Of a stretch of 13,815 nt of DNA, positions 896 to 13,815 are shown piece after piece; the first letter of the stretch is position 1; every line of letters begins with the position of its first letter. Both the position numbers and the translations under genes were made by a program. This DNA is from a virus. The notes under the pieces were generated by a model, which was not told where the DNA came from, did not search any database, and was given only the letters and a program-made list of their open reading frames with translations. The DNA is taken from UHGV virus genome UHGV-1810643; one strand, written 5' to 3'.

Positions 896-2776
896 TTAAT
901 ACTCCGTCACGTTTTCCTGTCGCCACGCCTCGTCATATTCCGATTTCGGCATATTGGCGATGTAGCTATATGGCGATCCTGATTCAAGTTGCAGGAACTG
1001 GTGCGATTGCTCGTCAAGGAACAACGGGACACCACCTTCCCAACCTTCGCCGTTTCGTTGTTTTTCAAGCATCAAAACAGATGCCGGAGACGCCAGTACC
1101 TGTTCGTCCTTCTCTGACATCTTTTCACCACTCTGAACTCTCTGTAACGCTCTCTCGCGAGCCTTGTTACGCCAGATGATGAAAAGGTTGTCTGTCAGGT
1201 CTGTTATCGCTCCAGAGCCTTTTACGTCCATTTTCCCGGTTGGTTTTTCTTCGCTGTCTCCTTTTCGCGAGTGAGTAACGAGAATGACGTGGGAGTTTGT
1301 TTTGTTTTTGAAGTCGCAAATCGAGTCAACAAACGCCTTCTGCCCGTTATAGTCATCGTCGCCTATGCCACATTTCATCAGGCTGTCGATGATGAATAAC
1401 TGGATCCCGTATCGGCGGCGAGCGTAGTCGAATATTTCGATCAGCCTGTCGGCTTTCGCCGTTCCGGTCAGGCCAAACACCCAAAGTCTTTCGTCATAAA
1501 ATTTAAATGCAGAGTCAATTTCCAGCACTGGCGGCATCTTGCAGCACGTTGCCTGACGGGTAAGGCGCTTAAGGAGAATACCAGGCTTCAGCTCAAGTGA
1601 CGCGATGCACGTCTTCACACCCTGACGCATTGCCTCAAGTGCCATATGCCCGACAACCTCCGTTTTTCCGTGACCGTTCACACCATTGACCAGCGTCAAC
1701 TCGGCCTCACGGAACTGGAATTTATCTGCCAGAGATTCCCACGGTGGATTAAACAGATACTGCTGCTTGCCGTAGAAAGCGTTGATAGTGTCCTGGTAAA
1801 ACTCTCGCGCGCTGTAGAGTTCTTCAGGATCAAAGTAGGATGCCGTGCCGATGTACTGCCAGATTGCATCCTCGGTAACACCGTTCATCAGGCATTCGTT
1901 GATGTCTTTGTACGGCAGAGTAACAAGACGGCAACGATGTTCACCGAGTCGGCTTGCGATTTCCCTTGCGGCTTCACGACCAACATCATCAACGTCCATC
2001 GAGATGAATATTTCCTCAAACCTGTCGAGGTTGTGATACTCAAACTCAATCCACTGTTGCTTAGCGCCTTTCCCTCCACCAAACGGTACGGATAACGCCG
2101 AGATGCCGTATTGCGCATAGCTCATACAATCAATTTCGCCTTCGCAAAGTACAACCGCCCTCACGCCAGCGTCCAGAGCCTGCCATCCGAACAGACAAGG
2201 TTCGCAATCACCTTCTGCCATAATGACTTTCTTCCCGTCCGGGCGCTCAGTGCTGATTCGCTTGACCTGCAACAACTCACCATCGCGTTTGTACGGAATC
2301 ACCAGAGCATCCAGTTCCCGCTCTCCATTCCACACCTTGCCGCTGACAACCTCGTAGCGCTTTACGATTTCTGGCGATATGCCACGCGATTGCAGGTACT
2401 CAAGATGGGATTCTGTTCTGGTAACGTAGCGGGCGATTTTCTTGCGATCAGGTCTGGAGAATTTTTTCTCACGTCTGGCATCGAAATGGTGATCGTCATC
2501 CTTGATACCGAGAAATGCTTTCGCTTCCTGCATAGCCTGATGCAGGTTAATTCCACGACATGCCATCCACAAATCAAGCATGTCACCGCCGTCTCCCTCA
2601 GCGAAATCAGCCCATTTTTTCTTGCCGCTAAGGTTGACCTTAAGGCTGTTTCCCTTGTCACCGTTGATGTTACCGGCAACCCACTCATGCCCCTCTTTCT
2701 TGCCGTTTGGCAACAGGTGCGGAGCCACCCTGTCAACCTGCGCCCAAAGCAGGTCGCTAAGTTCACTTGGCGTCAT
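896..2776 (-). CDS. Bifunctional primase-helicase (626 aa): TOPRIM primase domain plus C-terminal Walker A (DnaB/T7 gp4-like) helicase
   Basis: ORF track; TOPRIM-like motif CEGEIDCMS; Walker A GVNGHGKTE; occupies the position of lambda P. Confidence 0.88.
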   Translation of the reverse strand: MTPSELSDLLWAQVDRVAPHLLPNGKKEGHEWVAGNINGDKGNSLKVNLSGKKKWADFAEGDGGDMLDLWMACRGINLHQAMQEAKAFLGIKDDDHHFDARREKKFSRPDRKKIARYVTRTESHLEYLQSRGISPEIVKRYEVVSGKVWNGERELDALVIPYKRDGELLQVKRISTERPDGKKVIMAEGDCEPCLFGWQALDAGVRAVVLCEGEIDCMSYAQYGISALSVPFGGGKGAKQQWIEFEYHNLDRFEEIFISMDVDDVGREAAREIASRLGEHRCRLVTLPYKDINECLMNGVTEDAIWQYIGTASYFDPEELYSAREFYQDTINAFYGKQQYLFNPPWESLADKFQFREAELTLVNGVNGHGKTEVVGHMALEAMRQGVKTCIASLELKPGILLKRLTRQATCCKMPPVLEIDSAFKFYDERLWVFGLTGTAKADRLIEIFDYARRRYGIQLFIIDSLMKCGIGDDDYNGQKAFVDSICDFKNKTNSHVILVTHSRKGDSEEKPTGKMDVKGSGAITDLTDNLFIIWRNKARERALQRVQSGEKMSEKDEQVLASPASVLMLEKQRNGEGWEGGVPLFLDEQSHQFLQLESGSPYSYIANMPKSEYDEAWRQENVTEY

Positions 2777-2880
2777 GATTCCCTCAGATTGAGATTTTTA
2801 AACCAGAAATCGACAAACGAAATACTTAACCAGCCGTGGTTATAACCAGCGACCAGTAGCGATTTGATTTTTGATTTCAT
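2773..2880 (-). CDS. Possible 35-aa coupled mini-ORF between O-like gene and primase-helicase
   Basis: ATG at 2880..2878; stop overlaps primase-helicase start in an ATGA arrangement; weak SD; below ORF-track cutoff. Confidence 0.25.
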   Translation of the reverse strand: MKSKIKSLLVAGYNHGWLSISFVDFWFKNLNLRES

Positions 2881-2883
2881 GGT

Positions 2884-3744
2884 TCACCTGTCGAAAAACA
2901 CGTAGCCAGTTTTCGATACGGTGATTGCGGATGATGGTTTGGATTGTGGTTGAATGGTTTCTGGCTTTTCGTCGTTCCAGCGTTGACCGTTCAGGTAGCT
3001 CGATGGTAACAACCTGTCGAATCCGAACTGCTTACCATTCCTGCATGCGATGTCTTCTGCCAGCATCGTGGCAAACTCGCTTGCCGTCCCCCTGGTAGTT
3101 TTACGCCATTCCCTGAACTGTGTTCTGAATGCCGAAGCTGCGTTTTTCTTCCCGGCTTTCCGCATGCCTGCACACCAGAATATTTCCTCGAATGCCTTGT
3201 CGGTTTCTTCGTGACGGTCATGTGATTTTTCACACTCCGTCCGAACACTTTCGGACATAGTGTTTTTATTATTTCTTTTTTCTTTTGTAATAGTTTCTTT
3301 TGTGTGTCCCTGTTTTGGTGACAGCGCTGTCACCGTTTTGGTGACACTTTTTGTCACCAATGCAGTGACATTATCACCAGAGTAGTGACACCCTTCGATT
3401 TGCCATTCCTCGATGTTCTTGTTAGGCCCGATTTGCTGGCCTTCGCGAAGGATAACCTTCATCGCGATAAGCTCATTCTTGGCCTTGTTTACCTTCTGTC
3501 TTGGCAGCCTGGTAATTTGAGCTAACTGACTATCAGAGATGCGATCCATCTTTTTACCGTAGCCGTATGTTTTACGGCATATGGCGTGGGCAACCTTGCT
3601 CTGATTTTTCGTTAAATCTGCGCCGATAAGCTCTTCATACAGGGCATTTGCAAGACGGGTATAACCATCTTCAACTTCTGCCACACGACGCTCCACAGGC
3701 CGTTGTGAAGGCCTTAAATGTGTTACGGTTGCAAGATTACTCAT
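2884..3744 (-). CDS. Replication initiator, lambda O-like N-terminal DNA-binding domain with divergent C-terminal domain (286 aa)
   Basis: ORF track; N-terminal region [26 protein letters not shown]...[16 protein letters not shown] resembles lambda O as recalled; AAGGAG SD; iteron origin inside the gene. Confidence 0.85.
3263..3393. repeat. Replication origin: four GTGACA-containing iterons (3317..3393) next to an A/T-rich tract (3263..3300)
   Basis: GTGACA at 3318, 3341, 3365, 3385 with 20-24 bp spacing; perfect palindrome GGTGACAGCGCTGTCACC at 3317..3334; A/T-rich run on the side expected for an ori-lambda-type layout. Confidence 0.7.
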
Positions 3745-4275: not shown

Positions 4276-4307
4276 GCCCTTTTTCAGGGCTGGAATGTGT
4301 AAGAGCG
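4276..4307 (-). promoter_or_regulatory. nutR (boxB and boxA)
   Basis: Minus-strand boxB GCCCTGAAAAAGGGC (4276..4290) and boxA CGCTCTTAC (4299..4307). Confidence 0.8.
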
Positions 4308-4314
4308 GGGTTAT

Positions 4315-4524
<210 letters not shown>

Positions 4525-4531
4525 TTAGTAC

Positions 4532-4599
4532 ATGCAACCATTATCACCGCCAGAGGTAAAATAGTCAACACGCACGGTGTTAGATATTTATCCCTTGCG
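4532..4599. promoter_or_regulatory. OR1-OR2-OR3 operators with divergent pR (minus) and pRM (plus)
   Basis: OR1 tatcaccgccagaggta 4532..4548; OR2 4556..4572; OR3 tatcccttgcggtgata 4579..4595; pRM -35 tagata 4571..4576 and -10 tagatt 4594..4599. Confidence 0.9.
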
Positions 4600-4612
4600 G
4601 TGATAGATTTAA

Positions 4613-5329
<717 letters not shown>

Positions 5330-5441
5330 TCGGCAAGGTGTTCTGGTCGGCGCATAGCTGATAACAATTGAGCAAGAATCTTCATCGAATTAGGGGAATT
5401 TTCACTCCCCTCAGAACATAACATAGTAAATGGATTGAATT

Positions 5442-6281
5442 ATGAAGAATGGTTTTTATGCGACTTACCGCAGCAAAAATAAAGGGAAAGATAAGCGCTC
5501 AATAAACCTGTCTGTTTTCCTTAATTCTCTGCTGGCTGATAATCATCACCTGCAGGTTGGCTCCAATTATTTGTATATTCATAAAATCGATGGAAAAACT
5601 TTTCTCTTTACCAAAACAAATGACAAGAGTCTGGTTCAGAAGATAAATCGCTCTAAAGCTTCAGTTGAAGATATTAAGAACAGCCTCGCAGATGACGAAT
5701 CATTGGGATTCCCATCTTTTTTGTTTGTTGAAGGCGACACCATTGGTTTTGCCAGAACTGTTTTCGGGCCGACCACATCCGATCTGACAGATTTTTTAAT
5801 CGGGAAAGGAATGTCATTAAGCAGTGGAGAGCGCGTTCAGATAGAGCCACTGATGAGGGGAACCACCAAAGACGATGTTATGCATATGCATTTCATCGGC
5901 CGAACAACGGTGAAGGTAGAAGCCAAGCTACCTGTATTTGGCGATATATTAAAGGTCTTAGGGGCAACAGATATTGAAGGGGAGCTTTTTGACTCATTGG
6001 ATATAGTCATTAAGCCAAAATTTAAAAGGGATATAAAAAAGGTTGCCAAGGATATTATTTTTAACCCGTCACCTCAATTTTCAGACATTAGCCTGCGGGC
6101 AAAAGATGAGGCCGGAGATATTTTAACAGAACATTATCTATCAGAAAAAGGCCATCTCTCAGCGCCTCTGAACAAGGTCACCAATGCTGAGATAGCTGAA
6201 GAGATGGCATATTGCTACGCAAGAATGAAAAGTGATATACTGGAATGTTTTAAAAGGCAGGTGGGCAAAGTTAAGGATTAA
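5442..6281 (+). CDS. rexA: RexA (279 aa)
   Basis: ORF-track protein beginning MKNGFYATYRSKNKGKDKRSINLSVF matches lambda RexA as recalled. Confidence 0.95.
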   Translation: MKNGFYATYRSKNKGKDKRSINLSVFLNSLLADNHHLQVGSNYLYIHKIDGKTFLFTKTNDKSLVQKINRSKASVEDIKNSLADDESLGFPSFLFVEGDTIGFARTVFGPTTSDLTDFLIGKGMSLSSGERVQIEPLMRGTTKDDVMHMHFIGRTTVKVEAKLPVFGDILKVLGATDIEGELFDSLDIVIKPKFKRDIKKVAKDIIFNPSPQFSDISLRAKDEAGDILTEHYLSEKGHLSAPLNKVTNAEIAEEMAYCYARMKSDILECFKRQVGKVKD

Positions 6282-6296
6282 TTATCAGGAGTAATT

Positions 6297-6731
6297 ATGC
6301 GGAACAGAATCATGCCTGGTGTTTACATAGTAATAATTCCTTACGTTATCGTAAGCATTTGCTATCTCCTTTTCCGCCACTACATTCCTGGTGTTTCTTT
6401 TTCAGCTCATAGAGATGGTCTTGGGGCGACATTGTCATCATATGCAGGAACCATGATTGCAATCCTGATTGCTGCCTTGACGTTTCTAATCGGAAGCAGA
6501 ACGCGCCGACTGGCCAAGATTAGAGAGTATGGGTATATGACATCGGTAGTTATTGTCTATGCCCTTAGTTTTGTTGAGCTTGGAGCTTTGTTTTTCTGCG
6601 GGTTATTGCTTCTTTCCAGCATAAGCGGCTACATGATACCCACTATCGCCATCGGCATTGCCTCTGCATCGTTCATTCATATATGCATCCTTGTTTTCCA
6701 ACTATATAATTTGACCAGAGAACAAGAATAA
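6297..6731 (+). CDS. rexB: RexB (144 aa), polytopic membrane protein
   Basis: ORF-track protein matches lambda RexB as recalled; several hydrophobic segments. Confidence 0.95.
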   Translation: MRNRIMPGVYIVIIPYVIVSICYLLFRHYIPGVSFSAHRDGLGATLSSYAGTMIAILIAALTFLIGSRTRRLAKIREYGYMTSVVIVYALSFVELGALFFCGLLLLSSISGYMIPTIAIGIASASFIHICILVFQLYNLTREQE

Positions 6732-6756
6732 CCCGGCCTCAGCGCCGGGTTTTCTT
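6732..6756 (+). terminator. Rho-independent terminator after rexB (tImm)
   Basis: Stem cccggc (6732..6737) / gccggg (6743..6748) followed by ttttcttt. Confidence 0.8.
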
Positions 6757-6904
6757 TGCCTCACGATCGCCCCCAAAACACATAACCAATTGTATTATTG
6801 AAAAATAAATAGATACAACTCACTAAACATAGCAATTCAGATCTCTCACCTACCAAACAATGCCCCCCCTGCAAAAAATAAATTCATATAAAAAACATAC
6901 AGAT

Positions 6905-6967
6905 AACCATCTGCGGTGATAAATTATCTCTGGCGGTGTTGACATAAATACCACTGGCGGTGATACT
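6905..6967 (+). promoter_or_regulatory. OL3-OL2-OL1 operators and pL promoter
   Basis: OL3 6905..6921, OL2 6925..6941, OL1 6949..6965; -35 ttgaca 6939..6944, -10 gatact 6962..6967. Confidence 0.9.
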
Positions 6968-7007
6968 GAGCACATCAGCAGGACGCACTGACCACCATGA
7001 AGGTGAC

Positions 7008-7037
7008 GCTCTTAAAAATTAAGCCCTGAAGAAGGGC
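7008..7037 (+). promoter_or_regulatory. nutL (boxA and boxB)
   Basis: boxA cgctcttaa 7008..7016; boxB gccctgaagaagggc 7023..7037. Confidence 0.85.
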
Positions 7038-7235
7038 AGCATTCAAAGCAGAAGGCTTTGGGATTGGATGAATGAGCAGGCTGATGCTCGACCAATGTAT
7101 AAACAGCGCTCATGGCAAGCAGTAACCAATCTGCGCCTCAAGACAGCGTCACTGGTAGTGCGGGCGCTCTAACCAGTAAGCCGGGGTTCAGCGCCGGCCA
7201 TCCAATCACCAAAGCTAACTGACAGGAGAATCCAG

Positions 7236-7562
7236 ATGGATGCACAAACACGCCGCCGCGAACGTCGCGCAGAGAAACAGGCTCAATGGAAAGCAGCAAA
7301 TCCCCTGTTGGTTGGGGTAAGCGCAAAACCAGTTAACCGCCCTATTCTCTCGCTGAATCGCAAACCGAAATCACGAGTAGAAAGCGCACTGAATCCAATA
7401 GACCTTACAGTGCTGGCTGAATACCACGAACAGATTGAAAGCAACCTGCAACGTATTGAGCGCAAGAATCAGCGCACATGGTACAGCAAGCCACGCAGTG
7501 AAATGGGGGTGACTTGTGTTGGTCGCCAGAAAATGAAATTAGGCAGCAAACCACTTATTTGA
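7236..7562 (+). CDS. N: Antiterminator N (107 aa) with variant C-terminus
   Basis: ORF-track protein MDAQTRRRERRAEKQAQWKAANPLL matches lambda N at the arginine-rich N-terminus; last ~25 residues differ from lambda N as recalled. Confidence 0.9.
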   Translation: MDAQTRRRERRAEKQAQWKAANPLLVGVSAKPVNRPILSLNRKPKSRVESALNPIDLTVLAEYHEQIESNLQRIERKNQRTWYSKPRSEMGVTCVGRQKMKLGSKPLI

Positions 7563-7570
7563 GGTGATAT

Positions 7571-7657
7571 ATGGAAGAAGAATTTGAAGAGTTCGAAGAG
7601 CATCCGCAGGATGTGATGGAACAATACCAGGACTATCCGTATGACTACGACTATTGA
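7571..7657 (+). CDS. 28-aa acidic peptide (lambda orf28-like)
   Basis: ATG at 7571 with GAGGTGA SD overlapping the N stop; translation MEEEFEEFEEHPQDVMEQYQDYPYDYDY; 17-nt overlap with ral start. Confidence 0.4.
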   Translation: MEEEFEEFEEHPQDVMEQYQDYPYDYDY

Positions 7658-7841
7658 TAAGAATCAATGGTGTGGACAATTCAAGCGATGCAATGGATGC
7701 AAGCTGCAATCGGAATGCATGGTTAAGCCTGAAGAAATGTTTCCTGTAATGGAAGATGGGAAATATGTCGATAAATGGGCAATACGAACGACGGCAATGA
7801 TTGCCAGAGAACTTGGTAAACAGAATAACAAGGCTGCCTGA
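7641..7841 (+). CDS. ral: Ral restriction-alleviation protein (66 aa)
   Basis: ORF-track protein MTTTIDKNQWCGQFKRCNGCKLQSEC matches lambda Ral as recalled. Confidence 0.85.
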   Translation: MTTTIDKNQWCGQFKRCNGCKLQSECMVKPEEMFPVMEDGKYVDKWAIRTTAMIARELGKQNNKAA

Positions 7842-7858
7842 TGGTGGCCTTTATTTTT
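7830..7858 (+). terminator. Weak hairpin plus T-run after ral (possible terminator)
   Basis: 5-bp stem aaggc / gcctt with 12-nt loop followed by tattttt; weak. Confidence 0.3.
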
Positions 7859-7977
7859 GGCATAAACAACAGAATAAACACAGCACTGTGTATTCATTCC
7901 AACGAGTGAATACACGGAGCAATGTCGCTCGTAACTAAACAGGAGCCGACTTGTTCTGATTATTGGAAATCTTCTTT

Positions 7978-8003
7978 GCCCTCCAATGTGAGGGCGATTT
8001 TTT
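7978..8003 (+). terminator. Rho-independent terminator upstream of ea10
   Basis: Perfect 6-bp stem gccctc (7978..7983) / gagggc (7990..7995), 6-nt loop, then gatttttt. Confidence 0.6.
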
Positions 8004-8023
8004 ATCTGTGAGGATATGAATAG

Positions 8024-8392
8024 ATGTCAAACATCAAAAAATACATCATTGATTACGACTGGAAAGCATCAATAGAAATTGAAATCGACCATGACGTAAT
8101 GACAGAGGAAAAACTTCACCAGATTAATAATTTCTGGTCAGACTCTGAATACCGACTCAATAAACACGGCTCTGTATTAAATGCTGTATTAATCATGCTG
8201 GCGCAACATGCTCTGCTTATAGCAATTTCAAGCGACTTAAATGCATATGGTGTTGTGTGTGAGTTCGACTGGAATGATGGAAATGGTCAGGAAGGATGGC
8301 CTCCAATGGATGGTAGCGAAGGAATAAGAATTACCGATATCGATACATCAGGAATATTTGATTCAGATGATATGACTATCAAAGCCGCCTGA
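8024..8392 (+). CDS. ea10: Ea10-like protein (122 aa)
   Basis: ORF track; size and position after ral match lambda ea10; GAGGA SD upstream. Confidence 0.75.
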   Translation: MSNIKKYIIDYDWKASIEIEIDHDVMTEEKLHQINNFWSDSEYRLNKHGSVLNAVLIMLAQHALLIAISSDLNAYGVVCEFDWNDGNGQEGWPPMDGSEGIRITDIDTSGIFDSDDMTIKAA

Positions 8393-8467
8393 GCGCGGCT
8401 TTACCGCATACCAATAATGCTTCACGAGAGGCATTTTCGTTATGCAATCAAATATAAGGAGTTACCC

Positions 8468-8602
8468 ATGATGCACTTTCAGCTCGCGGGTAGCGGCGTC
8501 ATGTCCGCTTTCTACCCGCACGAATCTGAATTATCACGCCGAATTAAACAATTAATCAGAGCAGCAAAGAAACAACTGGAGGCGTTATGCGCAATGAAAT
8601 AG
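8468..8602 (+). CDS. cIII: CIII-like protease inhibitor (44 aa), divergent from lambda CIII
   Basis: Start at ATG 8468 with AGGAG 6 nt upstream (ORF-track extension to 8417 lacks an SD); ESELSRRIKQLIRAAKKQL resembles the conserved CIII helix. Confidence 0.7.
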   Translation: MMHFQLAGSGVMSAFYPHESELSRRIKQLIRAAKKQLEALCAMK

Positions 8603-8739
8603 CCATTAATCACCAGATGCTTCGTGCTGCACAGAACAAAGCAGTAATAGCCAGATTTATTGGTGATTCCAAAATGTGGCTTGAAGCAAATAAAGCGATG
8701 AAATCAGCGATCAACATTCCGTGGTATCGCAGGAAATGA
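8587..8739 (+). CDS. Kil-like small protein (50 aa)
   Basis: ATG at 8587 with GGAGG SD; overlaps cIII end as kil does in lambda/P22; below ORF-track cutoff; assigned by position only. Confidence 0.5.
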   Translation: MRNEIAINHQMLRAAQNKAVIARFIGDSKMWLEANKAMKSAINIPWYRRK

Positions 8740-8814
8740 GTTTTACAGATAACTGGTCAGACGAAGAATTCATTCGTCAGATGAAAGATTTAATCGGTAA
8801 CGAAGGAGATATGC

Positions 8815-8985
8815 ATGTCACTTGCAACCACAGTGAAGGAGAGCAAGTTACAGAGACGCATGTACACTCAGCAGGCGTTAATGTATCGCCAGAAGGGAGA
8901 TCGTGAAGGTGTTCGCGTATTTTTAAATGCGGCAAAGACTGAAGTATTAAATCAGCGTTATTTCCTTGTGCCATGTCCATTCTGA
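8815..8985 (+). CDS. Arf-like small basic protein (56 aa) immediately upstream of erf
   Basis: ATG at 8815 with AGGAG 6 nt upstream; ends 10 nt before erf; assigned by position; alternative ORF 8736..8906 overlaps in another frame. Confidence 0.4.
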   Translation: MSLATTVKESKLQRRMYTQQALMYRQKGDREGVRVFLNAAKTEVLNQRYFLVPCPF

Positions 8986-8995
8986 GAACAAACAT

Positions 8996-9601
8996 ATGAG
9001 CAAAGAATTTTACGCAAGACTGGCAGCCATTCAGGAGAATCTGAACGCGCCAAAGAATCAGTACAACTCATTCGGTAAATATAAATACAGAAGCTGCGAA
9101 GACATTCTTGAAGGCGTTAAGCCGTTACTGAATGGCCTGTTTTTATCAATCAGCGATGAAGTTGTGTTGATTGGTGATCGGTATTACGTGAAAGCCACGG
9201 CAACTATTACCGATGGCGAAAACAGTCATACGGCAACCGCACTAGCACGAGAGGAAGAAAGCAAGAAAGGAATGGATTCTGCACAAGTTACGGGCGCTAC
9301 AAGCTCTTATGCACGCAAGTATTGCCTCAATGGTTTGTTCGGCATTGATGATGCGAAAGATGCAGATACAGACGAGCATAAACATCAGCAGAGCGCAGCA
9401 GCAAAGCAATCAAAACCATCACCTACACCTGAACAGGTTCTAAAAGCATTCACTGACGCAGCATTGCAGAAAAACACCGTGGAAGAGCTTAAACAGGCGT
9501 TCGCCAAAGCGTGGAAGATGCTCGAAGGCACACCGGAGCAGCAAAAAGCGCAGGACGTTTACAACATCAGACGAGACGAATTAGAAGGAGCGGCTGCTTA
9601 A
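8996..9601 (+). CDS. erf: Erf single-strand annealing recombinase (201 aa)
   Basis: Protein from MSKEFYARLAAIQENLNAPKNQYNSFGKYKYRSCEDILEGVKPLL matches P22 Erf as recalled; start at internal ATG 8996 rather than ORF-track 8966. Confidence 0.9.
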   Translation: MSKEFYARLAAIQENLNAPKNQYNSFGKYKYRSCEDILEGVKPLLNGLFLSISDEVVLIGDRYYVKATATITDGENSHTATALAREEESKKGMDSAQVTGATSSYARKYCLNGLFGIDDAKDADTDEHKHQQSAAAKQSKPSPTPEQVLKAFTDAALQKNTVEELKQAFAKAWKMLEGTPEQQKAQDVYNIRRDELEGAAA

Positions 9602-9984
9602 TGGCACATTCGATTACTGTAAGACTAAACAAGCCCGTAAGAGAGTTTCAGGCCGGGGAAAATATCGGATTCAACATCCGTGCTGGCGTTCAGTATTACG
9701 ATCGCCAGACAAAAAAGAAAGAATGGACAAACTACAGCGCCGTTGTATTTGCCAAGCCGGGAGCGCAAGCGGATTACTACCGTAGTGTTCTTGTTGAAGG
9801 TGGCATTGTAGAAATTACCGGAGAAAACATCAGGGTTGATGTTTATCAGGGGCAAAATGGTCAATCAATCACTCTTGAATTACTGAATGCAAAGATTGGA
9901 TTTGCAGCTTCAGGAAATGGCCCGCAGCAGCAAAGTAGTAATCATCAAAATCATCCTGAATACGACGATTCAATTCCCTTCTAA
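9601..9984 (+). CDS. Short SSB-like protein (127 aa) with C-terminal acidic DDSIPF tail
   Basis: ATG at 9601 overlapping the erf stop; OB-fold-like core; C-terminus PEYDDSIPF resembles the E. coli SSB tail DDDIPF. Confidence 0.7.
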   Translation: MAHSITVRLNKPVREFQAGENIGFNIRAGVQYYDRQTKKKEWTNYSAVVFAKPGAQADYYRSVLVEGGIVEITGENIRVDVYQGQNGQSITLELLNAKIGFAASGNGPQQQSSNHQNHPEYDDSIPF

Positions 9985-10007
9985 ATTAGCAAAATAAGGA
10001 TTCCATT

Positions 10008-10304
10008 ATGCCAGCGCCTCTGTATGGTGCGGACGACGCGCGCCGCTGTTCCGGCAATTCCGTATCGGAGGTGCTGGATAAATTCAGAAAAAACTACGAT
10101 CGGATAATGTCGCTACCGCAGGAAACGAAAGAGGAAAAGGAATTTCGCCACTGTATATGGCTTGCAGAGAAAGAAGAACGCGAGCGAATTTACCAGACAT
10201 CAATCCGACCATTCCGCAAAGCCACATATACCAACTTCCCTGAATATATCGAACCGCGCCTGCGTAATTACCGCTCACGCTATGGCGCTATCAGTAATGA
10301 CTGA
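10008..10304 (+). CDS. Abc2-like anti-RecBCD protein (98 aa), tentative
   Basis: ORF track; AAGGA SD; size and position after erf consistent with P22 abc2; identity from memory only. Confidence 0.5.
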
Positions 10305-10314
10305 GGAATTTACC

Positions 10315-10482
10315 ATGAGAGGACTTGCATACAATCCCGGCATTCTTCCGGCAGAAATGATTATTCGCCAACGCGTAAAGCCAATGCCATCGAGAGAGGA
10401 ATTGCTTAAGAGAAATTCTTTTCCATCAGTGAATCAAAACAAATATCTGAATGCGATGTGGCGCAAAGGAGGCAACCAGTGA
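10315..10482 (+). CDS. Hypothetical 55-aa protein
   Basis: ATG at 10315 with GAGGAA SD 7 nt upstream; stop overlaps the next gene's GTG start (GTGA). Confidence 0.35.
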
Positions 10483-11204
10483 GCAAGATTGATTATCAAA
10501 AGCTTCGTGAAATCGCTGAAAAAACAAAAATTGCTGGTGAAGCACCTGTAATGCCTTTCGATCAGCGAATTAATGCGCTTAACGATTTTATGAAGCACTT
10601 TTCGCCAGATATCGCGCTGGCATTGTTGGATGAACGGGAAAGAAACCAGCAATACATCAAACGCCGCGACCAGGAGAACGAGGATATTGCGCTTACGGTT
10701 GGGAGGCTGCGCGTTGAGCTGGAAGGCAAAGACAGCAAAATAGCCAATCTTACCGCCGAACGCGATGCTCTTCGTGAAGGTGAGATGGGCGACGCTAGGC
10801 ATAGCAACACACGGGCCGCAGCTGATATCTACTTCCAACTGGTCGAGGAATGCGAAATTCCTGCTGGCGGATCTCTGGTCGAGTACGTTGACGATATGCG
10901 CGAGAAGCTGGAAGCCGCAGAGAAGCGCATTGCAGAACTGGAAGCACGGGAAATAAAACCAGCCAAAGGCGAAGTTCTTGTCGTTGTTTCTGGTTTTACT
11001 GGTTGCGGAAAAAGCGCCATCGCCGGGGAAATAGAAATCGCGATGAAGGCTATTGGTGTACCGGTTCAGTGGACTAATGGCGATGTGGAAAAGCGCATGA
11101 CAGGAGCTGACTGGCTGACAGCGATTGAGATGTACAAACCAACAGTGCGCATCGTGGAAGTTAATGTGCCACGCGCCGCAGGCATTCGCATCAAAGGAGA
11201 GTGA
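10479..11204 (+). CDS. Ea22-like coiled-coil protein (241 aa) with divergent C-terminal region containing a Walker A-like motif
   Basis: GTG at 10479 with AGGAGG 6 nt upstream; [27 protein letters not shown] and terminal GIRIKGE match lambda Ea22 as recalled; body differs. Confidence 0.65.
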
Positions 11205-11406
11205 GATGAGCAGGAATACGGGTTTGTAAAAGATAACGCTTGTGAAAATGCTGAATTTCGCGTCGTCTTCACAGCGATGCCAGAGTCTGTAGTGTCAGAT
11301 GATGACCTTACTCAAACATCGGGTTGAGTATTATCTTACTGTTTCTTTACATAAACATTGCTGATACCGTTTAGCTGAAACGACATACATTGCAAGGAGT
11401 TTATAA

Positions 11407-11688
11407 ATGAGTATCAATGAGTTAGAGTCTGAGCAAAAAGATTGGGCGTTATCAATGTTGTGCAGATCCGGTGTCTTGTTTCCATGCAGACATCACGAAG
11501 GTGTTTATGTAGATGAAGGTATAGATATAGAGTCGGCATACAAATATTCCATGAAGGTTTATAAGTCTAATGAAGACAAATCCCCATTCTGCAATGTGCG
11601 AGAAATGACTGATACCGTGCAAAATTATTATCACGAGTACGGTGGAAACGATACTTGCCCTCTCTGTACAAAACATATAGATGATTAA
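11407..11688 (+). CDS. ea8.5: Ea8.5-like protein (93 aa), Cys/His-rich
   Basis: ORF track; AAGGAG 7 nt upstream; size and position match lambda ea8.5; C..C / C..C / HH pattern. Confidence 0.75.
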   Translation: MSINELESEQKDWALSMLCRSGVLFPCRHHEGVYVDEGIDIESAYKYSMKVYKSNEDKSPFCNVREMTDTVQNYYHEYGGNDTCPLCTKHIDD

Positions 11689-11705
11689 ACCAAATATTAC
11701 ATAAC

Positions 11706-11763
11706 AATCCTCGCACTCGCGGGGATTTCTTTTATCTGAACTCGCTACGGCGAGTTTTGTTTT
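11706..11763 (+). terminator. Tandem rho-independent terminators after ea8.5
   Basis: Hairpin aatcctcgc..gcggggatt then tctttt (11706..11734); perfect 7-bp stem aactcgc/gcgagtt, loop tacg, then ttgtttt (11739..11763). Confidence 0.6.
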
Positions 11764-11776
11764 ATGGAGATGATAA

Positions 11777-11944
11777 ATGCACTTCCGAGTCACAGGTGAA
11801 TGGAATGGAGAGTCATTCGACAGGGTTATCGAAGCAGAGGACATCAACGACTGCTATAACCACTGGATGATATGGGCGCAGATAGCGCATGCAGACGTAA
11901 CCAATATTCGAATTGAAGAACTGAAAGAACACCAAACCGCCTGA
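11777..11944 (+). CDS. Hypothetical 55-aa protein (matches the unnamed lambda ORF between ea8.5 and xis as recalled)
   Basis: ATG at 11777 with GGAG 7 nt upstream; below ORF-track cutoff. Confidence 0.5.
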   Translation: MHFRVTGEWNGESFDRVIEAEDINDCYNHWMIWAQIAHADVTNIRIEELKEHQTA

Positions 11945-11957
11945 TGGCGGTTTTTTA
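11937..11957 (+). terminator. Terminator hairpin overlapping the stop of the 55-aa ORF
   Basis: Stem ccgcc (11937..11941) / ggcgg (11946..11950), loop tgat, then tttttt. Confidence 0.55.
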
Positions 11958-11970
11958 TTGGAGACAAGAA

Positions 11971-12315
11971 ATGTCAGATTTGGCTATGAAGGTTTTGAAA
12001 TGGCAATCGACTGGCGATGTCGGCATCAGTAGCGCAACTCTTGCCTCAATCGCATGTGGACTGAAAAAGAATATCTATGGTCATCACTTCGGCGCTCCAC
12101 ATGACGCAGCCGATTTCCGACGATGCGTTGCACTGGTTGAGCAGATCCCAGAAATCAGAGATTCATTCGACAAGGTTGCAAAGCGCGTTCCGGCATTCAA
12201 AGGCATCCTCACCGAATGGGATTCCCTCGTTGCTCTGTTGAAGTCTGAAATGAAGATACACGGAAACAAAGCACCAGAGACTTACAGAAGAATTAGCGAG
12301 TTACGCAAGGACTAA
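11971..12315 (+). CDS. Hypothetical protein (114 aa) inserted between the 55-aa ORF and xis
   Basis: ATG at 11971 with GGAGA SD (ORF-track start 11944 lacks an SD); no similarity recognised; no counterpart in lambda as recalled. Confidence 0.6.
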   Translation: MSDLAMKVLKWQSTGDVGISSATLASIACGLKKNIYGHHFGAPHDAADFRRCVALVEQIPEIRDSFDKVAKRVPAFKGILTEWDSLVALLKSEMKIHGNKAPETYRRISELRKD

Positions 12316-12373
12316 CCACAGCCTCACACTCGATGAGGCCCGTTCATTTCTCAAGATATCCAGACCTACCATT

Positions 12374-12396
12374 GCCGCATCAATGCGGCTTTTCTT
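12374..12396 (+). terminator. Terminator-like hairpin upstream of xis
   Basis: Stem gccgca (12374..12379) / tgcggc (12384..12389), loop tcaa, then ttttctt. Confidence 0.5.
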
Positions 12397-12408
12397 GCGT
12401 GTAATTGC
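12395..12408 (+). promoter_or_regulatory. pI-type CII binding site (TTGC-N6-TTGC) upstream of / overlapping xis start
   Basis: ttgc 12395..12398, six nt, ttgc 12405..12408, as in lambda pI. Confidence 0.5.
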
Positions 12409-12420
12409 GGAGACTTTGCG

Positions 12421-12639
12421 ATGTACTTGACACTTCAGGAGTGGAACGCACGCCAGCGACGCCCAAGAAGCCTTGAAACAGTTCGTCGATGGGTGCGCGA
12501 ATGCAGGATATTCCCTCCTCCGGTTAAGGATGGAAGAGAGTATCTGTTCCACGAATCAGCGGTAAAGGTTGACTTAAATCGACCAGTAACAGGTAGCCTT
12601 TTGAAGAGGATCAGAAATGGGAAGAAGGCGAAGTCATGA
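12421..12639 (+). CDS. xis: Excisionase Xis (72 aa)
   Basis: ORF-track protein MYLTLQEWNARQRRPRSLETVRRWVRECRIFPPPVKDGREYLFHESAVKVDLNRPVTGSLLKRIRNGKKAKS matches lambda Xis as recalled. Confidence 0.95.
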   Translation: MYLTLQEWNARQRRPRSLETVRRWVRECRIFPPPVKDGREYLFHESAVKVDLNRPVTGSLLKRIRNGKKAKS

Positions 12640-13687
12640 GCGCCGGGATTTACCCCCTAACCTTTATATAAGAAACAATGGATATTACTGCTACAGGGAC
12701 CCAAGGACGGGTAAAGAGTTTGGATTAGGCCGAGACAGGAGGATAGCAATCACTGAAGCTATACAGGCCAACATTGAGTTATTTTCAGGACACAAACACA
12801 AGCCTCTGACAGCGAGAATCAACAGTGATAATTCTGTTACGTTACATTCATGGCTTGATCGCTACGAAAAAATCCTCGCCAGCAGAGGAATCAAGCAGAA
12901 GACACTCATAAATTACATGAGCAAAATTAAAGCAATAAGGAGGGGCCTGCCTGATGCTCCACTTGAAGACATCACCACAAAAGAAATTGCAGCAATGCTC
13001 AATGGATACATAGACGAGGGCAAGGCGGCGTCAGCCAAGTTAATCAGATCAACACTGAGCGATGCATTCCGAGAGGCAATAGCTGAAGGCCATATAACAA
13101 CAAACCCGGTCGCTGCCACTCGCGCAGCAAAATCAGAGGTAAGGAGATCAAGACTTACGGCTGACGAATACCTGAAAATTTATCAAGCAGCAGAATCATC
13201 ACCATGTTGGCTCAGACTTGCAATGGAACTGGCTGTTGTTACCGGGCAGCGAGTTGGGGATTTATGCGAAATGAAGTGGTCTGATATCGTAGATGGATAT
13301 CTTTATGTCGAGCAAAGCAAAACAGGCGTAAAAATTGCCATCCCTACAACATTGCATGTTGATGCTCTCGGGATATCAATGAAGGAAACACTTGATAAAT
13401 GCAAAGAGATTCTTGGCGGAGAAACCATAATTGCATCTACTCGTCGTGAACCGCTTTCATCCGGCACAGTATCAAGGTATTTTATGCGCGCACGAAAAGC
13501 ATCAGGTCTTTCCTTCGAAGGGGATCCGCCTACCTTTCACGAGTTGCGCAGTTTGTCTGCAAGACTCTATGAGAAGCAGATAAGCGATAAGTTTGCTCAA
13601 CATCTTCTCGGGCATAAGTCGGACACCATGGCATCACAGTATCGTGATGACAGAGGCAGGGAGTGGGACAAAATTGAAATCAAATAA
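12617..13687 (+). CDS. int: Tyrosine integrase Int (356 aa)
   Basis: ORF-track protein matches lambda Int as recalled; 23-nt overlap with xis as in lambda. Confidence 0.97.
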   Translation: MGRRRSHERRDLPPNLYIRNNGYYCYRDPRTGKEFGLGRDRRIAITEAIQANIELFSGHKHKPLTARINSDNSVTLHSWLDRYEKILASRGIKQKTLINYMSKIKAIRRGLPDAPLEDITTKEIAAMLNGYIDEGKAASAKLIRSTLSDAFREAIAEGHITTNPVAATRAAKSEVRRSRLTADEYLKIYQAAESSPCWLRLAMELAVVTGQRVGDLCEMKWSDIVDGYLYVEQSKTGVKIAIPTTLHVDALGISMKETLDKCKEILGGETIIASTRREPLSSGTVSRYFMRARKASGLSFEGDPPTFHELRSLSARLYEKQISDKFAQHLLGHKSDTMASQYRDDRGREWDKIEIK

Positions 13688-13696
13688 TGATTTTAT

Positions 13697-13815
13697 TTTG
13701 ACTGATAGTGACCTGTTCGTTACAACAAATTGATAAGCAATGCTTTTTTATAATGCCAACTTAGTATAAAAAAGCAGGCTTCAACGGATTCATTTTTCTA
13801 TTTCATAGCCCGGAG
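13697..13815. other. attP: P' arm with arm-type Int sites and IHF H' site, 15-bp core (13761..13775), start of P arm truncated by window end
   Basis: Core ttagtataaaaaagc is the reverse complement of the lambda att core GCTTTTTTATACTAA; arm-type repeats in tgactgatagtgacctg (13700..13716); IHF-like TATCAATTTGTTG on the minus strand; core centre about 81 bp from the int stop. Confidence 0.85.

Follow-up and report, generated by a model that had tools for sequence, protein, structure and literature searches.

The DNA analysed here, referred to as the window, is a stretch of 13,815 nucleotides from the virus genome UHGV-1810643, and all features described below lie on its + strand. Between orf55 and xis it carries one open reading frame for a protein of 114 residues (11971..12315), a homolog of 434 ORF114, HK022_32 and phrog_1229, which is preceded by a good Shine-Dalgarno sequence (GGAG, 11960..11963) 7 nt before its ATG, as an earlier note on this DNA had read it. 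The upstream neighbour orf55 (11777..11944, a lambdap35 homolog) is separated from ea8.5 by a double hairpin with T-runs (11706..11757; -25.5 kcal/mol, z = -5.5), which is equivalent to the annotated tL4 of 434 and HK022 and whose second hairpin (11738-11757) forms the boundary element before orf55. The TGA stop codon of orf55 (11942-11944) lies in the loop of a further terminator-like hairpin followed by six T residues (left hairpin; 11934..11956). Directly 3' of the ORF114 stop codon there is a hairpin without a T-run (12321..12339) and, beyond it, the right hairpin with its T4 (12374..12393), which corresponds to t'-I in the 434 annotation. The CII-binding tetrads TTGC-N6-TTGC of promoter pI (12395..12408), identical to those of lambda, are then followed by xis (excisionase, 12421..12639; PF07825, E = 3.9e-41) and int (lambda-type integrase, 12617..13687). 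The transcript reaching ORF114 has its source at the pL promoter (TTGACA-17-GATACT, 6939..6967), downstream of which lie the nutL boxB GCCCTGAAGAAGGGC (7023..7037, an exact match with 0 expected by chance) and the antiterminator gene N (7236..7562; phrog_271, anti-termination protein N-like, E = 8.7e-27). The backbone of the genome is a mosaic in which a lambda immunity region (98.3% identity) is found together with Erf and a primase/helicase.

Alignment with the lambda reference NC_001416 showed that exactly 437 bp are extra in the window, at 11957..12393 (+), close to the roughly 440 bp given in the earlier note, and that lambda truly lacks ORF114. The flanks of the block, GGCGGTTTTTT on the left and CTTGCGTGTAATTGCGG on the right, are contiguous in lambda, and both ends of the difference fall inside hairpin/T-run elements, with the exact placement of the block being ambiguous within the T-run. 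The single hairpin expected at the lambda orf55/xis junction is indeed there and is of the left type. Adjacent orf55 and xis genes were found in lambda, HK106, JEP4 and PhiR11_1, all of which have GGCGGTTTTTT joined directly to CTTGCGTG. In base composition the block (47.8% GC) is similar to its flanks (orf55, 47.0%; xis, 49.3%) and to the operon as a whole (45.4%).

The statement that the product has no recognised homology holds for function and fails for sequence, as ORF114 matches phrog_1229 over residues 1-114 (E = 1.6e-51) and has 96-99% amino-acid identity, at equal length, to 434 ORF114, HK022_32 (HK022p30), mEp213_026 and Gally_20 (GALLYPH_20). These proteins differ from the window protein by one to four point differences, and the identity to the 434, HK022 and mEp213 proteins is 96.5-99.1%. 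The 434 gene was deposited in 1990 (GenBank M60848.1, protein AAA67902.1) in a record that also annotates the terminators t-L4 and t'-I, and the window shares the whole 434-type arrangement, with orf55 upstream, t'I-pI-xis-int downstream and matching flanking hairpins, although its backbone is unlike that of 434 and HK022, being a different mosaic with lambda immunity, Erf and primase/helicase. Among 5,426 complete E. coli genomes, about 915 (~17%) carry the gene, Stx-converting phages included, and about 1,242 have the lambda-type junction without it. The block is the ORF114 cassette long deposited for 434 and HK022, a common and conserved gene, and we consider it quite probable that this is an early accessory gene which lambda has lost, not a newly inserted moron expressed in the lysogen. 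As a genome feature it is ordinary: it is a catalogued and common presence/absence polymorphism of lambdoid prophages, of which lambda represents the allele without the gene. The cassette consists of the Shine-Dalgarno sequence, the 114-aa coding sequence and the short 3' hairpin (approximately 11957-12368). It fills an accessory slot of variable content that lies at the distal end of the early-leftward pL operon, just before t'I-pI-xis-int.

[quoted passage not shown] In contrast to these, it is absent from lambda, and it has no relation in sequence or fold to the exo-xis proteins. The exo-xis literature names orf55 as the last exo-xis gene of lambda and does not treat ORF114 (PMC8614690, PMC3824215), and a literature search on ORF114, HK022p30, NP_597889, phrog_1229 and the 434 genome returned nothing relevant.

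The two elements that bracket ORF114, like the one before orf55, have the G+C-rich stem-loop and T-run of intrinsic (Rho-independent) terminators, and by position the elements of this region are equivalent to terminators annotated in 434 (t-L4, t'-I) and in HK022 (tL4). The left hairpin (stem 11934-11953, T6 to 11956) has a predicted energy of -13.1 kcal/mol (z = -3.7, none of 200 shuffles as good) and the right one, GCCGCATCAATGCGGC (stem 12374-12389, T4 to 12393), of -10.3 kcal/mol (z = -2.0, with 8 of 200 shuffles at least equal). Terminator-like sites are altogether frequent here, with 6 found against 1.0 expected in 11300-12700 and 18 against 7.1 in 6700-13815. No Rfam family reached its gathering score in 11650-12650, where only sub-threshold noise was seen, so that a structured RNA is not indicated. 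Bracketing of the gene, as the earlier note described it, is thus present, but there is only weak support for the similarity of the two elements. They have in common a G+C stem, a loop of 4 nt, a T-run and the core CCGC...GCGG-TTTT-(A/C)TTG, but an equal local alignment score was obtained with 43 of 2,000 shuffles. The further proposal that insertion had duplicated a junction hairpin did not survive comparison, since the left hairpin is native to orf55, contains its stop codon and equals the single junction hairpin of lambda, and the right one is t'I of the lambda-type xis/int module, to which we assign it because the homology with mEp213 stops at about 12368. The hairpin at 12321..12339 is taken as the 3' end of the cassette, since it is found alongside ORF114 in g341c, mEp213 and HK97. 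Terminator bracketing as a trait of the family was considered and rejected, as the Klebsiella and Pantoea homologs lack it, and it says little about ORF114 itself.

In the sense of HK97/HK022 comparative genomics, a moron is a unit of promoter, gene and terminator that has been inserted between two neighbours and that the prophage expresses. ORF114 resembles such units in being a lone extra gene between genes that are adjacent in relatives, with a terminator directly after it (12374-12389 and its T-run, though this is an element of the xis/int module), in encoding a protein of unknown function, like many moron products, and in occupying a variable slot, which in P22 holds eaG and eaC and no named homolog. 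A scan of 11300-12700 on both strands, covering the sigma-70 consensus only, found no promoter-like site where 2.6 were expected, what lies upstream of ORF114 is a terminator and not a promoter, and the base composition does not deviate from the flanks. Between pL and ORF114 we found only one weak + strand promoter-like site (8742-8769), and the gene follows pL at a distance of about 5 kb, with at least six terminator-like hairpins in between. Because it has no promoter of its own, because terminators lie en route and because nutL and N are present, we infer that ORF114 is made only by N-modified read-through; as judged from these sequence features, it would be expressed early after infection or induction and not from the repressed prophage. 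Prophage Gally of strain LF82, which has the same orf55-ORF114-xis-int order and a 96.5% identical gene, is consistent with this. RNA-seq of the LF82 lysogen, done under a single condition with a threshold of 5-fold and with spontaneous induction of this related prophage being high, found only the repressor at or above 5-fold over background, and Gally was described as 'devoid of any moron' (PMC9928086). In addition, the position of the gene is conserved across genera in diverged prophages, relics of it exist in HK97-like phages, PADLOC gave no match, and the family also occurs in phages of ~55-60 kb outside the lambdoid and P22-like groups. Cumulatively, these findings make it improbable that ORF114 is a moron, as the earlier note had called it, in the sense of an autonomous unit inserted at a lambda-like junction and expressed from the prophage to the benefit of the lysogen, for example in defence or anti-defence.

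A different role for the block, as mainly a cis-regulatory spacer whose extra terminator and 437 nt alter the transcription that reaches pI, xis and int, would accord with the two terminators that stand in series before pI here, against one in lambda. Transcripts from pL are N-modified, however, and hence pass such terminators. Moreover, the pI CII site (12395-12408) and the sequence downstream of it are identical to lambda, and a hairpin with T-run abuts pI in both arrangements, which speaks against the suggested effect on int/xis expression. The coding sequence itself is under strong purifying selection (dN/dS 0.05-0.19 in 10 pairwise comparisons), and therefore the protein is the selected product. 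We regard the spacer explanation as very improbable.

With the cassette defined, the direction of the difference from lambda can be considered. The lambda junction contains no nucleotide that is absent from the ORF114-bearing arrangement and is a clean chimera of its two boundaries, so that a deletion in the ancestry of lambda is the more economical event. In prophages of Salmonella, Klebsiella and Pantoea and in SPN9CC, the early-left genes end with a homolog of ~60% identity (60-65%) in last or next-to-last place. A relic of 49 nt from the ORF114 3' end persists in HK97-like phages, along with the spacer, the right hairpin and a lambda-type xis/int, and in mEp213 orf55-ORF114 is joined to a different integrase, with homology extending to about 12368. 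On the basis of parsimony and this distribution, lambda probably lost ORF114 by a single deletion, and the insertion suggested in the earlier note is not supported, given the filled slot in other genera, the linkage to another integrase type in mEp213, the HK97 relics and the seamless lambda junction. Such a deletion would have joined two T-runs through the microhomology GCGG(C)TTTT, keeping a hairpin and T-run directly upstream of pI, after which the two alleles may have been swapped freely by homologous recombination in flanks that are ~97% identical. A like event at a similar 'hairpin-T-run-GGAGA' element may have removed orf55 in Salmonella phage g341c, the junction of which falls in the TTTTATGGAGA repeat.

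Conversely, a lambda-like ancestor may have acquired ORF114 through hairpin/T-run linkers, the gene then becoming an ordinary member of the pL operon and lambda representing the older state. Both junctions do fall within boundary elements of a kind found repeatedly between genes, the cassette stands behind differing upstream elements (the orf55 hairpin here, a tL4-type hairpin in g341c), and the junction without the gene is somewhat commoner in E. coli (1,242 vs 915 genomes). Nevertheless, acquisition requires two microhomology crossovers where deletion requires one, the lambda junction holds nothing beyond the nucleotides of the longer arrangement, the slot is filled in distant genera, and the right hairpin, native to the xis/int module, always has ORF114 sequence to its left in the HK97 group. 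Acquisition in this way appears rather unlikely to us. Recombination in homologous flanks can move the gene either way, and the direction of the indel is inferred and not proven. An alternative junction without ORF114, TTTTTTATTGCGTG, was seen in 13 genomes only; it is possibly a second deletion or a point change and is therefore not decisive.

The boundary elements themselves recall an older observation on lambdoid phages. Comparative papers of the HK620/HK97 era reportedly described short conserved 'linker' sequences at gene junctions and proposed them as sites of module exchange. In the window, orf55 and ORF114 are bounded by three similar elements of the type 'hairpin-T-run-(SD)', and natural variants in which exactly one cassette is missing are joined within such elements. 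Unlike those linkers, the elements of the window also resemble intrinsic terminators, and their mutual identity (~65-75% over 23-37 nt) is statistically marginal.

The product of ORF114 is a real and selectively maintained protein of a large phage family, which comprises at least 2,838 clusters (at 50% identity) at E <= 1e-3. It is soluble and basic (pI 9.2), and its AF2 model is confidently all-alpha (pLDDT 93.4, pTM 0.86). In alignments of 74 and 123 members the residues S20, P43, D45, D48, R51, C52 and W83 are invariant, and the window protein has all invariant and near-invariant positions, including the motifs W11, G-x-S-S, P-x-D-P-x-D-F-x-R-C, P-E, W-D and A-P-x-x-Y. The motif is kept from enterobacterial phages to those of Vibrio, Gordonia and Arthrobacter, that is, across phages of Proteobacteria and Actinobacteria. 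The remote-homology and structure searches proposed in the earlier note did not lead to a recognised function: scans with Pfam, NCBIfam and PADLOC gave no match, a profile search against PDB sequences returned nothing below E = 0.08, Foldseek found no fold match in the PDB (best E = 5.3), BFVD yielded only uncharacterised phage proteins, and no functional annotation for the family was present in any of the databases searched, where its members are 'hypothetical'. The 'lipoprotein' label on AP012530 was rejected, as there is no lipobox and the maximum hydropathy is 1.02. Fusions, clustered and scanned, comprised 37 N-terminal extensions, 8 C-terminal extensions and 2 tandem duplications, with no Pfam or PHROG function among the partners and none like orf55; a single fusion to a CCA-adding/poly(A) polymerase-HD enzyme (P0166) was too isolated to build on.

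Genomic neighbours of distant members offer a hint at the role of the protein. Distant members lie next to a DUF3799 exonuclease, accompanied in one case by RecT and RdgC and in another by an SMC-like ATPase and SSB, or near SSB and GIY-YIG. Based on these recurrent recombination and replication neighbours and on a few polar residues that phages of Proteobacteria and Actinobacteria share without exception, we tentatively suggest that ORF114 could be an accessory factor of the lytic cycle. Its ligand or partner would then be a universally conserved one from DNA or nucleotide metabolism, and it would not be a host-specific virulence or immunity factor. Since phage early regions generally hold recombination genes, the association could be trivial. 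Moreover, the majority of the conserved residues are found at the N-termini of helices, which they could simply cap in a structural role.

Several properties of the gene (early, small, non-essential, variably present, with an unknown fold and a location in the exo-xis region) would also suit an early-acting inhibitor, for anti-defence or host takeover, with a specific host protein as its binding target, like the exo-xis products that shift the lysis-lysogeny decision. Genes of the exo-xis region are known to modulate development (PMC8614690, PMC3824215). Yet it would be unusual for an inhibitor of fast-evolving, host-specific targets to keep an invariant motif in phages of enterobacteria, Vibrio, Gordonia and Arthrobacter alike, no likeness to solved anti-defence proteins was found (PDB to April 2026), PADLOC assigned the protein to none of its defence-system families (0 families), and a basic protein is not an acidic DNA mimic. 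We hold the inhibitor role to be doubtful. For the ORF114 family, a further picture, offered as a conjecture, is that of a new fold with a conserved activity or ligand site that serves early in lytic growth, in which the invariant Ser-Ser, Asp, Asp, Arg-Cys and Trp may form the site and the role is perhaps in recombination or DNA metabolism; separately, the hairpin-T-run-SD punctuation may be a recombination hotspot that allows repeated deletion or swapping of single-gene cassettes with pI still insulated.

These data correct an easy mistake, namely that a gene which lambda lacks and which has terminators on either side is thereby a moron. In the exo-xis region lambda is a reduced reference, and differences of this kind should therefore be polarised against other lambdoid phages first. 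They also draw attention to a large, strongly conserved, confidently modelled and uncharacterised protein family with neither a Pfam entry nor a solved structural neighbour, in which ORF114 lends itself readily to structure determination and, in 434 or HK022, to deletion phenotyping.

Alignment of the window to lambda (NC_001416) bore out the earlier note's observation of about 440 extra bp between orf55 and xis: lambda joins ...GGCGGTTTTTT directly to CTTGCGTGTAATTGCGG..., and the window carries exactly 437 bp between them. The window is oriented in the direction of lambdoid early leftward transcription and its + strand carries the pL promoter (6939-6967, TTGACA-17-GATACT), nutL boxB (7023-7037), N (7236-7562), ea8.5 (11407-11688), orf55 (11777-11944), ORF114 (11971-12315, with the SD sequence GGAG 7 nt 5' of the ATG), xis (12421-12639) and int (12617-13687), with an Erf-type recombinase and Ea22-like genes placed after N and before ea8.5. 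The prophage is a mosaic (regions 896-3744 on the - strand, 4276-7562 and 8966-9601): immunity and regulation (cro, cII, cI, rexA/B, pL, nutL/nutR, N) are 98% identical to lambda, and they are combined with a hybrid O-like initiator, a 626-aa primase/helicase replacing lambda P, and an Erf-type recombinase replacing Red. The previously assigned positions of the ORF and hairpins were accurate, and both hairpins with T-runs are present on the + strand, the left at 11934-11956 (T6; -13.1 kcal/mol, z = -3.7), its loop holding the orf55 TGA stop (11942-11944), and the right at 12374-12393 (T4; -10.3 kcal/mol, z = -2.0); their supposed mutual similarity, however, is marginal, as 43 of 2,000 shuffles scored equally high. 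A third + strand hairpin, GCCTCACACTCGATGAGGC (12321-12339, -8.6 kcal/mol), lacks a T-run, lies directly 3' of the ORF114 stop and is kept wherever the 3' end of the gene occurs (g341c, mEp213, HK97); it may act in mRNA stability or processing.

ORF114 is an already-known gene, placed by sequence comparison in the 434 ORF114 / HK022_32 / phrog_1229 family (function unknown). The segment 11700-12700 is 96-97% identical to phages 434 and HK022, and a GenBank entry of 1990 (M60848.1) already marks 'ORF55' and 'ORF114', along with the terminators 't-L4' and "t'-I", at exactly matching positions. The HK022 record annotates tL4, its updated version lists HK022_32 as 'N15 early protein homolog', and further equivalents are mEp213_026, GALLYPH_20 and g341c gene 20. 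By position the gene belongs to the accessory set of the exo-xis region, yet it has no counterpart in the lambda set and, being absent from lambda, falls outside the published work on that region (PMC8614690, PMC3824215). Among 5,426 complete E. coli genomes, about 915 carry ORF114 and about 1,242 the lambda-type junction without it; presence or absence is a common two-allele polymorphism, with reference lambda as the empty allele.

The block had been read as an insertion, and four observations point instead to ORF114 as a long-standing occupant of this position and to lambda as the lineage that probably lost it. First, homologs with 60-65% amino acid identity occupy the matching slot in Salmonella, Klebsiella aerogenes and Pantoea prophages and in phage SPN9CC, namely that of the last early-left accessory gene after Erf/RecT/Abc/Ea genes, followed directly by a ~67-aa gene and then by integrase or the prophage end. 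Second, mEp213 joins orf55-ORF114 to a different integrase, and its homology stops at ~12368, just before the right hairpin. It follows that this hairpin is part of the lambda-type xis/int module and that the cassette itself covers ~11957-12368. Third, the last 49 nt of ORF114 are kept in HK97, HK75, mEpX2, ECP1, HK446 and mEp235. Read directly, HK97 has the relic behind an unrelated gene, and a spacer leads from it to the right hairpin and then to xis/int of the lambda type; such relics beside the right hairpin and xis imply that the ORF114-t'I-xis linkage is older than those mosaics. The HK97 relic (compared locus L005, 1501-1549) is unannotated and lies between gp37 and a putative terminator upstream of xis. 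Fourth, the lambda junction consists of the left hairpin with its T-run, continued directly by what follows the right T-run, with nothing foreign to the ORF114-bearing arrangement. A single microhomology-mediated deletion at GCGG(C)TTTT would suffice to produce it, whereas gain of the gene by a lambda-like ancestor without it, which we consider unlikely, would need two such crossovers. A junction within the T-run also keeps a terminator immediately 5' of pI, the CII-dependent promoter by xis, and this may be why this particular deletion persists. Today, the ~97%-identical flanks allow either allele to be exchanged by homologous recombination. A second ORF114-less junction, TTTTTTATTGCGTG / GGCGGTTTTTTATTGCGTG versus ...TTTTTTCTTGCGTG in lambda, occurs in 13 E. 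coli genomes (for example NZ_CP031922.1 3417908-3417948; also locus L011, Stx1a_11KH263) and could reflect either another crossover shifted 4 nt to the right or a C-to-A point change.

A parallel event is seen one cassette upstream. In the Salmonella phage g341c, the tL4-type hairpin that precedes orf55 in the window stands directly before ORF114, and the join lies inside a shared TTTTAT(G/T)GGAGA motif (locus L017, ~1430-1503), so that orf55 is missing there, the mirror image of lambda without ORF114. Judged from these alignments, three similar hairpin-T-run-SD elements bound two cassettes, with natural variants lacking exactly one. The elements preceding orf55 (11757-11779) and ORF114 (11951-11973), spaced 194 bp apart, share a hairpin-T-run-TTTTAT(G/T)GGAGA-N6-ATG layout at 74% identity. 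Immediately upstream of xis/int, P22 (locus L032, 747-1662) has eaG, eaC and the antisense aI RNA, and SPN9CC and relatives (locus L029, 2501-2851) have an ORF114 homolog in that slot, which is thus variable among P22-like phages.

The suggestion that the block is a moron did not hold in three of five features: promoter, lysogen expression and composition. A scan of 11300-12700 on both strands found no sigma-70-like promoter against 2.6 expected, the + strand from pL to int holds a single weak promoter-like site and many terminator-like hairpins, and the element preceding ORF114 is of the terminator rather than the promoter kind. The block (47.8% GC), orf55 (47.0%) and xis (49.3%) are indistinguishable in base composition. 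Gally, a prophage of E. coli LF82, has the same orf55-ORF114-xis-int arrangement with a 96.5% identical gene; it is described as 'devoid of any moron', with the repressor alone transcribed at least 5-fold over background (PMC9928086). These published data from a related prophage are the best expression evidence available. The lack of a sigma-70-like promoter, the matching GC and the Gally homolog's failure to rise above background in the lysogen make a moron very unlikely; together with the upstream terminator, they lead us to infer a delayed-early role for ORF114, which would be reached solely by N-antiterminated pL transcription. Such transcription would read through the tL-series hairpins and t'I to reach it, N-antiterminated read-through of such terminators being an established mechanism in lambda. 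As for the proposed effect on int/xis expression, nothing in the sequence points to altered pI control: the CII tetrads (12395-12408) and everything downstream are identical to lambda, and a hairpin and T-run adjoin them both with ORF114 (window) and without it (lambda).

ORF114 is a real gene, since dN/dS is 0.05-0.19 among five phages, and the conserved N-terminus MSDLAMKVL supports the start at 11971; a 123-aa form from several gene callers (database proteins P0001, P0002, P0007), starting at ATG 11944 in the hairpin loop, is disfavoured by the family alignment. The protein is soluble and basic (pI 9.2), sequence analysis found neither a hydrophobic segment nor a lipobox, and AlphaFold2 gave a confident seven-helix model (pLDDT 93.4, pTM 0.86). 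Pfam, NCBIfam and PADLOC hold no family for it. A profile search nevertheless reached 2,838 clusters (50% identity) at E <= 1e-3, 629 of them at E <= 1e-10, and tblastn found 277 phage records, including Vibrio, Yersinia, Mannheimia, Providencia, Gordonia and Arthrobacter phages, all annotated 'hypothetical' save one 'lipoprotein' (AP012530.1 1656-2000, Stx2a_F349), an apparent annotation artefact, since that sequence contains neither a lipobox nor anything resembling a signal peptide. Fused and tandemly duplicated forms also occur in the family and are uninformative on function. In P0166 (558 aa), a single case, an ORF114-like domain (residues 451-537) is fused C-terminally to a CCA-adding / poly(A)-polymerase with an HD domain; P0066 (333 aa) and P0196 (244 aa; locus L021, 5001-5735), from metagenomic phage contigs, carry tandem domains in one polypeptide. 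Many in-frame chimeras join part of ORF114 to Ea22-like, Kil, ERF or DUF550 (PF04447) sequence (P0015, P0017, P0029, P0036, P0050, P0052, P0062, P0218), and some Stx phages retain the first 56 codons alone (Stx2-86 orf40, locus L007, 1474-1704); mosaic joints therefore often fall within ORF114.

Across members of ~30% identity, S20, P43, D45, D48, R51, C52 and W83 are invariant and W11, G18, S21, L55 and P60 nearly so; most lie at helix N-termini of the model, where they could act as structural caps or else line a site for a ligand. More distant family members sit in phage early or DNA-metabolism regions: one directly after DUF3799 exonuclease-RecT-RdgC, one that overlaps a DUF3799 exonuclease and has an SMC-like ATPase after it and SSB close by, and one near SSB and GIY-YIG. 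We tentatively propose that ORF114 might serve the lytic cycle as an accessory factor, with a broadly conserved DNA- or nucleotide-metabolism partner or ligand as its target. The reason is that its motif persists in phages from two bacterial phyla, a pattern that sits poorly with inhibition of a host-specific target; an anti-defence or host-takeover role is a rival reading only slightly less probable. The residual value of ORF114 lies in its being a very widespread, uncharacterised family of phage proteins whose fold is predicted with confidence and lacks a structural match.
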